Shown here in pieces: positions 12,951 through 18,722 of a stretch of 32,000 bases of DNA. The notes below the pieces were generated by a model, which made no database searches, was not told the origin of the DNA, and saw only the letters and a program-made list of their open reading frames with translations. Numbering within the stretch: the first letter of the stretch is position 1; each line of letters starts with the position of its first letter. Made by a program: the position numbers and the translations under genes. Source of the DNA: Candidatus Baldrarchaeum yapensis (GTDB taxonomy: Archaea; Asgardarchaeota; Baldrarchaeia; Baldrarchaeales; Baldrarchaeaceae); assembly GCA_016840465.1 (NCBI GenBank), contig JAEOSH010000004.1:30001-62000 (forward strand). The letters are read 5' to 3'.

Positions 12951-13793
12951 TTACTGCATCTGTCTCGACTCTTTTCTTAAAACTTCTCTAATGAGGTATT
13001 CAAAGCAGGGAACTATTTCTTCCACAAGCTCTCTTATCTTCCTGTACAAAACCCTATAGTCTATGTGCAAATACCTGTGAACGATTATGTTTCTGAGCCT
13101 CACAAACCCCTTAAGTCTTTCACCGAAATCATAAGGGAAGTATTGAGCCTCTACGAGTTTTTCTATAAATTCCACATATGTCTCGGCGGGACCAAGCCCC
13201 ATTGCTGAAACCAGATGACGACACACATCCAGCAGGGCTTCTATCAACACCTGAACGCTTCTCTCCATCGCTCTTCTTAAAGTTCCCGAGGACAGTATTT
13301 CCTCTATGCTCCTCTTAAGGATTTCATCCTTAAGGTATTTTGTCTCTCCTCGTGCAGCTTCAAGTCTGCTGAGAACAACCTGTTTATCTATTCCATTACC
13401 GTTCAGAAACTCTTTAATGGAAAGTTCTCGCAATAGTTGGATTTCCGGGTACCAGGTATTGACCTCGTTAATGATTTTATTCTCAAAACCTCCTCTATCG
13501 ACGAGTTTGATGCCTTCTCTTAAGATCTTAAACTTCATAGAAAGAGGGATGTTCTTGAGGTTCACAAGATCTACTTTTTCCTCGGGAACATTGAGAACTT
13601 TTGCAATTTTAGACTGGAGATGAGCCTCAAGGGCGAGGTCGTCGCCGGAGAGGAGGACCGCTATGTCCCAATCACTATGTAACCTTTGGGAACCGCGCGC
13701 CCTTGAACCGAACAAATATGCTAATAATACTCGGTGCTCCCTTAGCAGGAGCTCCTTGATCCTTTTTATCTCGTCGGAGGCCAATTCTTCCAC
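12951..13793 (-). CDS. Fused MNT nucleotidyltransferase - HEPN (DUF86/HepT-like) toxin-antitoxin protein
   Basis: N-half: YLFGSRARG..SDWDIAV..VDLV (GS + DxD + D). C-half: AMERSVQV..D..H and RNIIVHRY (Rx4HxY). One continuous frame. Confidence 0.88.
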   Translation of the reverse strand: MEELASDEIKRIKELLLREHRVLLAYLFGSRARGSQRLHSDWDIAVLLSGDDLALEAHLQSKIAKVLNVPEEKVDLVNLKNIPLSMKFKILREGIKLVDRGGFENKIINEVNTWYPEIQLLRELSIKEFLNGNGIDKQVVLSRLEAARGETKYLKDEILKRSIEEILSSGTLRRAMERSVQVLIEALLDVCRHLVSAMGLGPAETYVEFIEKLVEAQYFPYDFGERLKGFVRLRNIIVHRYLHIDYRVLYRKIRELVEEIVPCFEYLIREVLRKESRQMQ

Positions 13794-13800
13794 CAGTTCT

Positions 13801-14601
13801 TCACCACTCTAATAGTAGGGACCTCAGATATTTTATTCCCTCGAGTGAGAGGTTCGGCTCGTACACCTCAATTACTATGGCTCCGGTAAACTTAATATCC
13901 TTTAACTTTCCGATCAGTGCCTTCCAGTCTATATTTCCGGTCCCGGGAGGCTTATGGAGGTCTTCGGTTCCATCATTATCATGCGCATGTACGCAGACGA
14001 TTTTATTGGAGAATTCGTCGATGTATCGGAGGGCCCCCTCAGCGAGATTTGCGTGTCCCACGTCAAGACACAATTTTATCATGTCCGAATCAAGGGATCT
14101 AAGCAGGTATTGGATTTCAGGAATATTATCGCACAAGTATACGAGTTCGCTGCAATCGGGTACGGGCTTGAGGTTTTCTATTGCGGCAGGTATCTGAATA
14201 TTTTCGAGAACGGGTATAAACCTTCGAAAAGTGTCGATTGCAATCTCGAGCGCTTTTCGCTTCCCCTCTCTGTAACCAATGTGATGCCCTATGTGAGTGG
14301 TCACCCATTTAGCGTTTAGCACATCCGCAAGTCTCAGGATTCTATCGTAAAGCCTGATGTGGGCGTTCCTTATCATCGGAATTCTATCTCCGAAGTTCAG
14401 CGTGTACGGAGTATGAATGCTCAAACTAATACCCAAAGAATCGGCAATTTCTGCAATTTCCCTAACCTCGCTACTTTCCGGGTTCTCGGCGAGTGCGTAA
14501 TTTGTGTAAATGTCTATCTCAACATGATCTATTCCATGGTGTTCCGCAAGATTTAGATAGAACTTTGTCGGTCTAGGCGATGTCAGGACGCCTATACGCA
14601 T
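13801..14601 (-). CDS. Xylose-isomerase-like / endonuclease IV-like TIM-barrel metalloenzyme
   Basis: IHTPY, THIG, IENL, LDVGHAN, HAHDN, DLH and IEVY metal ligands. Confidence 0.85.
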   Translation of the reverse strand: MRIGVLTSPRPTKFYLNLAEHHGIDHVEIDIYTNYALAENPESSEVREIAEIADSLGISLSIHTPYTLNFGDRIPMIRNAHIRLYDRILRLADVLNAKWVTTHIGHHIGYREGKRKALEIAIDTFRRFIPVLENIQIPAAIENLKPVPDCSELVYLCDNIPEIQYLLRSLDSDMIKLCLDVGHANLAEGALRYIDEFSNKIVCVHAHDNDGTEDLHKPPGTGNIDWKALIGKLKDIKFTGAIVIEVYEPNLSLEGIKYLRSLLLEW

Positions 14602-14613
14602 GATACCACCGTG

Positions 14614-15084
14614 TCACGGCTCGGCCGCCGTGACGACCTCATCTTTTTCCTCCCTTACTCTCTTACAGCATCTTTCATCGGAGAAAATAGGCTTGCCATG
14701 GGGACATGTGGAAGGGTGATTGAGGAGTTTGCATATTCGGTTTATGAACTCCTCCGATACCACGAAGTCCATGTTTGCGGCCTCCGTGCACGCCTTCTCT
14801 ACATTATACCCCAAGAACTCGACCATGAATACCTCCAGTATCCTATGATTTCGTAAAAGCTGCCTCGCTAATTTTCTTCCCTCCTCGGTGAGCCTTATTC
14901 CCTTGTATGGGATGTACTGTATGTGGTTCCGCTTGGAAAGTTTCTTGAACATCTCAGTGACGGTTGAGGGACTTACCGAGAGTCTCTTCGCGACGTCCAG
15001 CGTTCTTATTATCTCCATGCCCTCCATTTCCATTTCCAGCAGAACCTTAAGATATTCGTACATCCTGCGCCCCAATGCCCTCAC
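14614..15084 (-). CDS. DtxR/MntR/IdeR family metal-dependent regulator (no SH3/FeoA domain, altered metal site)
   Basis: EYL..., DVAKRLSVSPSTVTEM HTH, YKGIRLTEEG, HRILE and PSTCPHGKPI. GTG start overlaps the ATPase stop (GTGA). Confidence 0.9.
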   Translation of the reverse strand: MRALGRRMYEYLKVLLEMEMEGMEIIRTLDVAKRLSVSPSTVTEMFKKLSKRNHIQYIPYKGIRLTEEGRKLARQLLRNHRILEVFMVEFLGYNVEKACTEAANMDFVVSEEFINRICKLLNHPSTCPHGKPIFSDERCCKRVREEKDEVVTAAEP

Positions 15085-15950
15085 CTTCTTCCCGAGATGA
15101 CAACATTCGCTATCAGATCGGCAAGTTCCTCATCGGTGAGGGGCACGACGTCCTCGGGTATGGGCACACCCTTTTGCCTCAGCATCCTCACTATACGTAT
15201 CGGCTTGGGAGGATATAAGGATGCCATATGCAACAATTCTTCGTCCGAAAATATTCTCCTAGGCTCCCCCTCTGCAATTATTGATCCATTTTTCATCAAA
15301 TAAATCCTATCTGCAAGTATTGCGGCAACCTCTACATCATGCGTTGCGATTACAAGCGTTAGGCCGCCTCTTTCCTTTAAATCTTTCAGAATACCGAGAA
15401 TCGTCATCTTAGATTCGGGATCCAAGCCGGCAACGGGCTCATCAAGAACGAGTATTTCCGGCCTCATCGCGAGAACTCCTGCTATTGCTGCTCTCTTTTT
15501 CTGTCCACCACTCAGATGATGAGGGGGCTTGTGCCGCACCTCCTCCAAACCGGTCACCTTGAGTGCCCACTCTACCCTTCTCCTCACCTCTTCTATTGGA
15601 AGCTTCTGGCATAATGGTCCAAATGCAACATCCTGCTCAACCGTCGGTGCGAAAAGCTGATCATCTGGGTTCTGGAAAACCATTCCCACTATTTTCCTTA
15701 TCTTCGGGAGGTTCCTTTTGGTGACCGGGATCCCCTTTACGATCACGGAACCCTTGGTCGGGAGGAGGATTCCATTGAGATGCAGGAGGAGTGTAGTCTT
15801 CCCCGCACCGTTTGGACCGAGAATTGCAACGCATTCACCCTTTTTCACATAAAATTCGAGATTGCAAATTGCGCGAGTCCCATCGGGATAAACATGCTCT
15901 ATACAACATGCTTCGATAATATTATCGTTGGAGTTTTGGTCAGATGGCAA
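15081..15950 (-). CDS. cbiO: ECF transporter ATPase (CbiO/NikO-like)
   Basis: GPNGAGKT, VFQNPDDQLF, LSGGQKKR, LVLDEP and THD motifs. Confidence 0.92.
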   Translation of the reverse strand: MPSDQNSNDNIIEACCIEHVYPDGTRAICNLEFYVKKGECVAILGPNGAGKTTLLLHLNGILLPTKGSVIVKGIPVTKRNLPKIRKIVGMVFQNPDDQLFAPTVEQDVAFGPLCQKLPIEEVRRRVEWALKVTGLEEVRHKPPHHLSGGQKKRAAIAGVLAMRPEILVLDEPVAGLDPESKMTILGILKDLKERGGLTLVIATHDVEVAAILADRIYLMKNGSIIAEGEPRRIFSDEELLHMASLYPPKPIRIVRMLRQKGVPIPEDVVPLTDEELADLIANVVISGRR

Positions 15951-16749
15951 GGATCTCCACCTCCGTTGTTATCCATAAAAGGAGAGAGAGCGAGGAGAGA
16001 GAGCTTACCAAAAATGCCATATCGGTGGCGGAAAATTTCTTATGGGGAGATAGAAGCCTTATTGTGCCATCAAAGCCACGTACCTCCATTGCTGTGTACA
16101 CCCTTTCCGCCCTTTCCATTGTTCTGATAAGAAATGCTCCCAAGATGTTCCCGAAGAGTTTGATATTCTCGAAAAACGTTCGTATCAGGCTCCCCCCACG
16201 TGCTCCCACGGCCTCCCTCATCCTTTTCATCTCATCTATAACCAGAAAGACGTACCTGAATGTGAGCAATAGCATGACGGAGAGAGTTCGTGGAAAGGCC
16301 TTCTGAACGTAATAGAGGAGTTCAAAGTGTGAGGTTGTCAGAACGACCATGAATATCGCAAGTGCAGCTGTTACCACTTTTAAAATTATGATTAGCCCCT
16401 GCATTACCCCCTCGATGCTGAGCGTAACCTTAAAGAGTAAGAGGTCGACAGAAAGTAGCGCCCTTCCCGGCACCGTGAATGGCAACATGATCGAAATTGA
16501 AAAACCGAAGAGGAATGGGACGGAAAGCCAGGAAATGAAATAACGTGGCGATGCGCGTGTCAGCAGGCAGAGGAAAAATGTCAAAAGGAGTAAGGCGACA
16601 AGAGTTTCAAGGTTATATGTTATTACAACGAGAACTGTGATTGCCAGCACGGTCACCAACTTCGCTATAGGGTGTATCCTGTGGAGAGGACTATCGCCAT
16701 TCTCCGCATACTCGTTTATGAGCCAGAAGTCCGGAAATAGCCCCATCAC
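15940..16749 (-). CDS. cbiQ: ECF transporter T component (CbiQ/NikQ-like)
   Basis: SPLHRIHP..KL, FRY..V..DE, RARGG-like segment and ERAERVY.AME.RGF.G. Confidence 0.9.
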   Translation of the reverse strand: MMGLFPDFWLINEYAENGDSPLHRIHPIAKLVTVLAITVLVVITYNLETLVALLLLTFFLCLLTRASPRYFISWLSVPFLFGFSISIMLPFTVPGRALLSVDLLLFKVTLSIEGVMQGLIIILKVVTAALAIFMVVLTTSHFELLYYVQKAFPRTLSVMLLLTFRYVFLVIDEMKRMREAVGARGGSLIRTFFENIKLFGNILGAFLIRTMERAERVYTAMEVRGFDGTIRLLSPHKKFSATDMAFLVSSLSSLSLLLWITTEVEILAI

Positions 16750-17357
16750 TTCACCTCCACGAGTTCACTGCCCATTTGGGAGAGGTAGTGGAGGATGACC
16801 GCCGTTATTAGGGACTCCACCACCGCCGCACCCACAAAGGCAATTAGAAGGATCAGGTACGTGGCGGGTGATAGCGCTGCACCGAGCGCCAGCATTCCCA
16901 CCATTGCGAATGCGCTTATCACTAACGACACGAAGGTCGCCACGGCCCCGCGTACCAGCACTCTAGGGATTACTCGTCTCAATGAGGTGAATAGCCAGTA
17001 AGCAAGCATCGCCTCAAACACTCCCAGCAGTATTGTGTTTGCGCCCGCAACCATGACCCCGCCGTGGCCTATCATTATGCAGAAGAGGTTGACGACAAAG
17101 GCCGCGAGAAATCCGAGGTACGGGCCCGATAATATTCCGATAAGCGGCATGAAGTCCAGATGAATTCCCCATGCCACAGGTACATTTATTTGCATTACCC
17201 CGAACGCAAACGCTGCGAGGATTGCAGTCCTCACAATCCTTCTCGGATTCTCATTTCTAGTTTTAAAGAGAGAAACTCCTAGCATGAGTAGTGCGGCGCC
17301 CCACCAGATGAGGCACCAGGTCATGGGGAGCACTGCCTCACTGTGGATATGCGCCAT
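16746..17357 (-). CDS. cbiM: ECF transporter S component (CbiM/NikM family, variant N-terminus)
   Basis: MAHIHSEAVL N-terminus, GIHL....LIGILSGP and GHGG..VAGANT; GGGGG RBS 8 nt before ATG 17357. Confidence 0.85.
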   Translation of the reverse strand: MAHIHSEAVLPMTWCLIWWGAALLMLGVSLFKTRNENPRRIVRTAILAAFAFGVMQINVPVAWGIHLDFMPLIGILSGPYLGFLAAFVVNLFCIMIGHGGVMVAGANTILLGVFEAMLAYWLFTSLRRVIPRVLVRGAVATFVSLVISAFAMVGMLALGAALSPATYLILLIAFVGAAVVESLITAVILHYLSQMGSELVEVK

Positions 17358-17370
17358 AATGCTATCCCCC

Positions 17371-17419
17371 AAATTTCGGTACTACCAAAATTCGGTACCA
17401 CCGAAATTTAATACTTTCG
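17371..17419 (-). promoter_or_regulatory. BRE/TATA promoter of the ECF operon with two tandem palindromic operators (TTCGGT-N3-ACCGAA)
   Basis: Minus strand reads CGAAAG (17419-17414) then TATTAAAT (17413-17406). Palindrome centres at 17382 (ttcggt-act-accaaa) and 17398 (ttcggt-acc-accgaa). The outer arms 17371-17380 and 17400-17409 are a perfect 10-bp inverted repeat. Confidence 0.7.
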
Positions 17420-17725
17420 AAAACGAACGTCGCGAGAACCTCTCTGTCCCATTAATAAAGGGACATTAAACATAATTTTTGATGTACACTTTTTATCCGA
17501 CATAATAAGTGGTCGGTAGGTTTATTGTGTTAACAACGTCGTTTTCAACTCGACATAAATCTGAATTTTAGGCAGAAGAAACCGACGATTTGATGCAACT
17601 AAAGATATTGAACGTACGTTCGTACTTGAATTACCAAGTCCCGAATCAGGAGAAGGTATAGAAGTGCAAGGATTTTACCTGAAAGATGGGCTGACATTAA
17701 GGATTTTGCGATAAGGATTGGATAT

Positions 17726-18568
17726 CTATCTCATATAGGTTGCTATTAACTTTATTCCGATCTTCTCCGCATCTTTCTGAGCGCTGGGGTGCACCAAGAA
17801 TCCGAAGAGAAAGCCTAATACATCCTTTTCACGATACGCCCTTTTCACCTTATTTAAGGTCTCCGCAAACTTCTTTACCTCCCTCGAATAAATCCTAGAC
17901 TTGCATTCACCCACTATTATGACTTCCTTGCCCTCTCTTCGTCCTATCCCAAATAGATTCAATTGTACTTCCTCTCCATCGACAACAACGAACGCTGGCT
18001 GAAGGTCTTCAACGTATATCTTCATATGCCGCTCAAGCCACCCCGGAACCATTACCCTCGCAATGTCCTCCAACCCAAACCCTATCAGGTCGCTTAATCT
18101 GCCGACTTGCCTTGCTAACTCCTGGACCGCCTTCGCCAATTCTTGAACTTGCTCTTCAGTCCTCCTCTGCGCCTCTGCCAATCGGTTCAACTGCTCCTCG
18201 GTGCGCCTCTGCGCTTCCGCGAGTTGGTTAACGCGTTCCTCCGTCCTCCTCTGCGCCTCCGCGAGTTCGTCCACTCGCCTTGCGAGTTCGTTCAGCCGTT
18301 CCTCGGTGCGCCTCTGCGCCTCCGCGAGTTGGTTAACCTGCTCCTCGGTCCGCCTTTGCGCTTCTGCGAGATCGTTCACCCGCTTTGCGAGCTCATTCAG
18401 CCGCTCTTCTGTCTGCCTCTGCGCCTCCACTAAGACTTCTATTTTTTCGGATAGTATTCGCACATTTTTTGACAGTTTATCAAACTCTTCTCTCGTTACC
18501 TTGATGTCCTTAACCTTGTCCTCAATGACCTTTACGATGAACTCATAAAGCTCGGGGCTTATGCTCAT
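17726..18568 (-). CDS. Heptad-repeat coiled-coil protein with C-terminal PD-(D/E)XK-type domain (DUF3782-like)
   Basis: Six LAEAQRRTEE-type repeats, then LSDLIGFGLEDIAR and EVQLNLFG...VGECKSR. Confidence 0.8.
   Translation of the reverse strand: MSISPELYEFIVKVIEDKVKDIKVTREEFDKLSKNVRILSEKIEVLVEAQRQTEERLNELAKRVNDLAEAQRRTEEQVNQLAEAQRRTEERLNELARRVDELAEAQRRTEERVNQLAEAQRRTEEQLNRLAEAQRRTEEQVQELAKAVQELARQVGRLSDLIGFGLEDIARVMVPGWLERHMKIYVEDLQPAFVVVDGEEVQLNLFGIGRREGKEVIIVGECKSRIYSREVKKFAETLNKVKRAYREKDVLGFLFGFLVHPSAQKDAEKIGIKLIATYMR
18140..18433 (-). repeat. Intragenic tandem repeat, units of 63-42-63-42-42-42 bp
   Basis: Six copies of the ctcctcggtgcgcctctgcgc-like core on the + strand; all unit lengths are multiples of 21 bp (one heptad). 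Confidence 0.9.
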
Positions 18569-18722
18569 GAGCAACCACTCCGGTCACTCTAACTTCGAGG
18601 ATTCTCTATTTAACGTTTATAGTCTCGGGCATTTATCACTAGCAGTCAATGGGTAACATATCATGCAACACGTTACATTCCGTTACGAAATCGAAAGGTC
18701 TCTCATTTCACACAATTCTCTC

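Follow-up and report, generated by a model that had tools for sequence, protein, structure and literature searches.

Gene content and promoter region

The DNA analysed here (the window) is a 32,000-nucleotide (nt) stretch of Candidatus Baldrarchaeum yapensis, from a 2.27-Mb genome (G000) that is 96% complete. On its reverse strand lies an operon for a metal transporter of the energy-coupling factor (ECF) type, which includes the gene of a DtxR-family repressor. The features of the operon and its promoter region are as follows (window coordinates; aa, amino acids; BRE, B recognition element).

16746..17357 (-), ECF S component of the CbiM/NikM family, AHIH clade (see below), 203 aa; PF01891 (3e-32) and structure model against TtNikM2
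15940..16749 (-), ECF T component (CbiQ/NikQ), 269 aa; PF02361, and TIGR02454 above cut-off
15081..15950 (-), ECF ATPase (CbiO/NikO), 289 aa; TIGR01166 above cut-off
14614..15084 (-), short DtxR-family repressor of the Cys98 (ZntR-like) clade, without FeoA/SH3 domain; PF01325 and PF02742, fold, and clade
17406..17413 (-), TATA-like element TATTAAAT, with purine-rich BRE-like bases just upstream; from sequence, with a presumed promoter function
17391..17405 (-), predicted operator site 1, the perfect palindrome TTCGGT-N3-ACCGAA; from sequence
17375..17389 (-), predicted operator site 2, TTTGGT-N3-ACCGAA, over the expected transcription start; from sequence
17365..17370 (-), Shine-Dalgarno sequence GGGGGA, 7 nt 5' of the ATG at 17357; from sequence

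The genes are as tightly coupled as an earlier note on this DNA, made from the sequence alone, had described, with a GTGA overlap between cbiM and cbiQ, an 11-bp overlap between cbiQ and cbiO and a further GTGA overlap between cbiO and dtxR, and they are presumably co-transcribed. The start read in that note for the S component (MAHIHSEA, at ATG 17357) lies 7 nt downstream of the Shine-Dalgarno sequence and is taken to be correct, since a start-type codon directly precedes the Ala codon in 92 of 94 homologous loci; an alternative upstream TTG (17372) was set aside. The codon preceding Ala-His-Ile-His is ATC, ACG or CTG in L236 (349-351), L042 and L161. These are possibly non-canonical starts or sequence errors (a good Shine-Dalgarno sequence is present in L236), and gene callers wrongly lengthen the AHIH proteins at such loci. 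A scan for bacterial promoters and terminators gave results no better than chance level. An inverted repeat, TGTCCC-TTTATTAAT-GGGACA (17433-17452), lies further upstream, about 30 bp from the TATA-like element.

The S component belongs to a separate clade

The 119 nearest homologues of the S component, among which the named taxa are Methanomicrobiales, all carry A-H-I-H directly after the start, mostly as MAHIHLEDG. The N-terminus A-H-I/V-H is found in 86/86 members of the clade, and the M-H-I-x-D/E-G of CbiM and NikM is absent. In a quick tree, these 86 proteins form a single clade apart from the MHIPDG (NikM-type) and MHIMEG (CbiM-type) proteins (SH-aLRT 99), consistent with the earlier proposal of a distinct subfamily. 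Six residues (H3, H5, H66, H98, N107 and E115) are invariant across the AHIH clade. E115, unmentioned in the earlier note, and the second N-terminal His are new, while the second metal-ligand His (in the GIHL motif), correctly reported there as kept, is H66, the equivalent of His67 in NikM. Glu198 of NikM is kept as E181, and H98 is common to Co-type CbiM. The second-shell residues Gln94, Met113 and His190 of the NikM pocket are replaced, with neither the Gln nor the Met present at its column in any of the 86 AHIH proteins.

The structure model of the S component has the seven-segment NikM fold (Z 24 against TtNikM2, 4M58/4M5B, with a root-mean-square deviation of 2.0–2.2 over 193 residues). 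The register of the N-terminus depends on the method: structural alignment sets Ala2 on Met1, and MAFFT sets His5 on His2, with a pLDDT (predicted local distance difference test) of 58 for the N-terminal segment. The suggestion that Ala after Met1 restores a NikM-like position thus agrees with the first alignment and not with the second; the initiator Met would presumably be removed. All NCBIfam CbiM cut-offs are above the score of this protein. An Ala inserted after Met1, ahead of His2, stops transport by a canonical system (PMC3945884), which argues that the AHIH start implies a changed metal site rather than a silent variant.

Compared with the NikMNQO and CbiMNQO systems (TtNikM2, 4M58/4M5B; RcCbiMQO, 5X3X), the window system shares the fold (Z 22–24), the T and ATPase subunits, the N-terminal loop before helix 1 and the equivalents of His67 and Glu198, but differs in its A-H-I-H start, a shorter loop before His66, the invariant Glu115, its separate clade, the lack of an N partner, and a regulator that is neither a canonical NikR nor a riboswitch. 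The AHIH proteins form a real, widespread third clade of metal ECF S components that is common in Methanomicrobiales and apparently undescribed in the literature. The window system would work like NikMNQO yet lacks the defining N-terminus, so that CbiM or NikM would be the wrong label for its S component.

As the earlier note observed, CbiN is lacking: PF02553 has no match in G000, and the sole PDGLE/NikN sequence belongs to a separate canonical operon. No auxiliary N subunit was detected in the window, nor any match for this operon elsewhere in G000. In methanogen loci, the AHIH gene is followed by one for a 90-aa two-helix protein (L035:6648-6926, L038:6666-6938) with a GP(L/M)GIEERF motif, an acidic/His loop and no Pfam match, which is probably the N-type subunit of the AHIH clade. 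In families f8 and f18 (L042-L051) the AHIH proteins are longer, at 260–300 aa, and a segment is inserted ahead of their last helix; in f8 a secreted-looking 340-aa gene lies immediately upstream. Orphan AHIH genes, with no T component, ATPase or regulator nearby, occur at L128, L130, L138 and L140.

The regulator and its targets

The regulator has a winged helix and a dimerisation domain (template modelling score ~0.8 against DtxR-family structures), and scores below the NCBIfam MntR/DtxR cut-offs. Its helix ACTEAANMDF contains the changes H98C, C102A, E105D and H106F in DtxR numbering (C99, A103, D106 and F107 of the protein itself), as had been reported. Neither the primary site of DtxR (M/D10, C/E102, E105, H106) nor His98 is kept, and positions 10, 102 and 106 are variable among 119 members of the clade to which the regulator belongs. 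This clade, of short Cys98 DtxRs without a FeoA domain, is separate from the His98 DtxRs (100/96 support). Its constant positions (n=119) are H80 (119), C99 (118), D/E106 (119), C118 (117), C/H129 (119) and C139 (116); the window regulator itself has H80, C99, C118, C127, H129, C139 and C140. The metal site therefore does look rebuilt, as the earlier note held, although its emphasis on the helix was misplaced: the conserved change is a Cys-rich site (Cys118, Cys/His129, Cys139) that it had not noticed. Glu at the M10 position is present but uninformative, being common (D/E) in ordinary DtxR homologues and variable in the Cys98 clade, and it was dropped as a clade marker. The conserved novelty is then a Cys-rich site surrounding what was the ancillary site (H76/E80/C123/H125 of MtsR/SloR, PMC9253540), with the primary site lost, and from known metal preferences such a thiolate-rich site would point to zinc. 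In common with DtxR/IdeR and the MntR/ScaR/SloR/MtsR group are the winged helix and dimerisation domain, H79, a CPHG motif and a TTnGG-centred palindrome, which may be likened to the haloarchaeal TroR sequence TTTAGGC-NNN-CCTAAA (PMC10783522). Unlike them, the window regulator has lost the primary site (C/E102, H106), has Cys for H98 and the extra Cys118 and Cys139, and lacks the FeoA/SH3 domain.

A search with the single regulator sequence gave two distant loci. The closest orthologues (51–54% identity, 99/96 support) are found in genomes of a sister family (G003 and G004), where, as in L237, the regulator gene ends a ZnuA-ATPase-ABC-3 operon; none of these three genomes gave an AHIH match. 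The ZnuA-like protein of the sister family (L033:2271-3347) carries a membrane anchor at its C-terminus, and the usual third His motif is missing from it. Among 400 genomes of the phylum, only G000 pairs a Cys98 regulator with an ECF; the regulator is beside znu genes in 13 others and beside a ZIP gene in 2. Adjacency to znuACB is seen in G003, G004, L237, 11 more phylum genomes and the methanogen loci L195 and L196, and in two further archaeal assemblies (L184, L197) the regulator heads ZIP genes. Methanogen Cys98 regulators head either znuACB (L195, L196; the substrate-binding protein best matches AztC) or a dtxR-cbiQ-cbiO-cbiM-90aa cluster, and the two types are interleaved in one clade (100/100).

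Haas et al. (2009) gave the name ZntR to a DtxR-like znuABC repressor of Methanosarcina and Methanoregula and listed its sites as TTTGG-N7-CCAAA (PMC2770081, suppl. 8). The Cys98 clade (100/96) takes in a Methanoregula regulator that lies beside znuACB with a ZntR box, and the earlier idea of a new sensor is not supported: the window sensor falls among methanogen regulators beside znuACB with the published box (PMC2770081). The ZntR of archaea (MA0022 in PMC2770081, Haas et al. 2009), compared here by its description and box, is likewise a small DtxR-like repressor tied to znuACB and has a 17-bp palindrome of the same geometry, and the published box is found with the methanogen members of the Cys98 clade. 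Unlike ZntR, the window regulator heads an ECF, belongs to another archaeal lineage and has the box TTT(C/T)G-N7-CGAA(A/T). The regulator class was thus already predicted in 2009. No experimental test of zinc-dependent DNA binding by archaeal ZntR was found in the literature searched.

A single clade of ECF-linked regulators was rejected by the approximately unbiased (AU) test (p-AU 1e-93), applied to a 43-row subset picked after the large regulator tree, a quick tree, had been built and including methanogen rows, themselves interleaved with znu-linked rows; the result shows a swapping of transporters, not the order of events. Because the ECF-linked regulators are not one clade, transporters have been exchanged under the Cys98 regulator more than once. 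The proposal that transporter, sensor and operator co-vary as one module does not survive this comparison, as most genomes have this sensor clade and box at znuACB or ZIP genes, and some AHIH transporters stand under a NikR paralogue (see below).

Operator sequences

The two palindromes do form a tandem pair, spaced 16 bp, but only site 1 is a perfect copy of the sequence that the earlier note gave for both. The TATA-like element, said there to be overlapped, instead abuts site 1 and leaves the core of that site clear. Sites 1 and 2 are the only matches to TTnGGT-N3-ACCnAA in G000, and site 1 the only perfect copy, against chance expectations of 2.5 for the loose pattern and 0.13 for the perfect 12 bases; since 2.5 loose matches are expected, a single site would be unremarkable, and the striking features are the tandem position and conservation in a relative. 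The tandem pair is kept in L236, where the S gene has its closest relative (62% identity). Five other loose TT(T/C)GG-N5-CC(A/G)AA matches in G000 lack the GT..AC core and the flanks.

In G004 and L237, the box preceding znuACB differs from site 2 at a single base, and the box ahead of znuA in G003/G004, TTTTG-GTA(A/C)(C/T)AC-CAAAA, is near-identical to that of the window. The window box, TTT(C/T)G-N7-CGAA(A/T), has the same centre and length as the ZntR box, TTTGG-N7-CCAAA, with C/T replacing G at position 4. In 32/33 dtxR-linked metagenome loci, and in 59/80 overall, a ZntR box is found no more than 250 nt from the AHIH gene, versus 7% of random windows, and it also precedes the methanogen znuACB loci.

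Other metal transport genes and NikR

No match to ZnuA, ABC-3, ZIP, Nramp or MntABC was found in G000. A separate canonical nikMNQO with an MHIPDG start is present (G000:C3:11046-13845, L187), preceded by a NikR-type box, GTAACAC-N14-GTGTTAC, and DtxR genes, including a long one, adjoin feoB. Zinc is therefore left without another obvious route while nickel and iron are served. The nikR gene at 317-805 of the window, noted earlier, is confirmed as the only one in G000; it lies 13–16.5 kb from the operon and far from nikMNQO. At methanogen loci, MHIPDG and MHIMEG systems adjoin the AHIH system.

AHIH operons without the Cys98 regulator and ZntR box were found at 5/80 metagenome loci and in the phylum families f8 and f18. 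Several of these adjoin a NikR-family gene and carry TTATTAA-N14/15-TTAATAA. The DNA-binding strand of this NikR paralogue, PI(I/V)S(I/V)SL, is unlike that of canonical NikR, and in about 20 phylum genomes (L204-L230, e.g., L220 and L229; full genes in L231 and L233) paralogue and box are divergent from a P1B-2 (Zn/Cd-type) ATPase gene. The paralogue is a candidate non-nickel NikR, for which the P1B-2 linkage would fit zinc. Some of its copies vary at the His87/His89 positions, and others retain all four Ni ligands, so that nickel may still be the metal handled.

Neighbouring genes

Two genes follow dtxR on the same strand:

13801..14601 (-), xylose-isomerase-like TIM barrel (MJ1311/D-tagatose 3-epimerase-like); PF01261, and 3WQO at 8e-15
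12951..13793 (-), fused MntA-HepT (MNT-HEPN) gene, a neighbour

The gaps are short, as reported (12 bp from dtxR to the TIM barrel, 7 bp from there to MNT-HEPN), and the TIM barrel is probably co-transcribed with dtxR. It resembles MJ1311 and D-tagatose 3-epimerases, with the metal-ligand motifs kept. None of the other AHIH or Cys98 loci examined has a TIM homologue nearby, and the two closest relatives in the phylum sample sit among sugar-acid dehydratase/FAH (fumarylacetoacetate hydrolase) genes. Both genes were rejected as parts of the module and are regarded as incidental neighbours. The fused MntA-HepT is type VII toxin-antitoxin-like, and has a full-length paralogue at G000:C35:25870-26748. 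Upstream of the operon, on the same strand, a coiled-coil repeat protein (17726-18574) has AEAQRRTEE repeats, is DUF3782-like and ends in a nuclease-like C-terminus.

Metal specificity

A metal other than Co/Ni is most likely, as the earlier note had suggested. By sequence comparison, the operon is probably a zinc-uptake unit, in which a zinc-importing ECF replaces ZnuABC. The S component would capture Zn2+ at its extracellular Ala-His-Ile-His loop via H3, H5, H66 and possibly H98/E115, in a site that would replace the square-planar four-nitrogen Ni/Co site and in which the extra His would take part. The ZntR-like repressor, with the DtxR primary site lost and a thiolate-rich site gained (H80, C99, C118, C127/H129, C139), would at sufficient zinc occupy both boxes between the TATA box and the start site and turn the operon off. 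In the sister family the orthologous regulator and box govern a znuACB operon, for which the ECF would have been substituted in the lineage of the window.

Several points weigh against this assignment. The specificity of ZntR for zinc is a prediction too, Mn and Fe are further substrates of ZnuA-family (cluster A-I) proteins and of ZIPs, and the substrate-binding protein of the sister family is equally weak against ZnuA, SloC and MntC. Some AHIH systems lie beside NikR-family genes with all four Ni ligands intact (H76/H87/H89/C95), and the f8 and f18 AHIH genomes also have ZIP genes (no ZnuA was found there). The operon has no N-type partner whereas the methanogen members have the 90-aa protein, and its box departs from theirs at positions 4/14 of the 17-mer. 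Genes may be missing from the draft genome, and the loci counted are kin rather than independent.

A second Ni or Co importer is an unlikely alternative, in which Met removal would leave an Ala-His that rebuilds the planar site of amine, His2 and His67, and the regulator link would reflect general metal limitation. It would account for the shared TtNikM2 fold with residue 2 aligned on Met1, the kept His67 and Glu198 equivalents, H98, and the NikR-family neighbours (L043, L121, L143, L157, L169), and every characterised metal ECF carries Ni/Co (PMC3945884). It sits poorly with the loss of transport on Ala insertion (PMC3945884), the replaced NikM pocket, the coexistence of canonical systems in the same genomes, and a main regulator whose other targets are znuACB and ZIP; moreover, the NikR nearby is a paralogue whose box is different and which is linked to Zn/Cd-type ATPases. 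We also judge improbable that regulator and transporter handle Mn or ferrous iron, with the cluster A-I ABC and ZIP partners as Mn/Fe importers. DtxR-family proteins are typically Mn/Fe sensors, and H80, E84, C127 and H129 match site 1 of MtsR/SloR (His76, Glu80, Cys123, His125; PMC9253540); neither Nramp nor MntABC is matched in G000, and a ferritin gene precedes the regulator in L183. However, Mn sensors have a carboxylate/His site 2 that is lost here, E84 is Ser in 72/119 clade members, and Cys residues are gained, thiolate-rich sites being established as suiting Zn over Mn; iron is apparently covered by the DtxR-feoB pairs. The version of the earlier note, a self-contained, co-evolved module supplying metal to the adjacent TIM-barrel enzyme, has the 12-bp gap and the kept metal-ligand motifs in its favour, but we give it very little credence, given the absence of TIM homologues at the other loci examined, the dehydratase/FAH setting of its closest relatives and the failure of the ECF-linked regulators to form one clade.

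Beyond zinc import by this operon, there are about even chances that the AHIH clade as a whole is a third, zinc-specific class of metal ECF, widespread in Methanomicrobiales and other archaea, mis-annotated as CbiM, accompanied by a DtxR with a Cys-rich zinc site and repeatedly exchanged with ZnuABC and ZIP. No published description of a zinc ECF or of the AHIH N-terminus was found in the literature searched, the regulon survey of Leyn and Rodionov (2015) lying outside its coverage.

Significance

Characterised metal ECFs carry only Ni and Co, and the accepted basis of their selectivity is a square-planar site at an N-terminus where no insertion is tolerated. A natural clade with the 'forbidden' Met-Ala-His start under zinc-type control offers a direct test of this planar-site model. 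The residues Cys98, Cys118, Cys/His129 and Cys139 provide a signature for the predicted archaeal ZntR. The AHIH ECF is a candidate zinc importer for archaea without ZnuABC, including cultured Methanomicrobiales, and in methanogens many supposed cobalt/nickel transporter genes may be something else.

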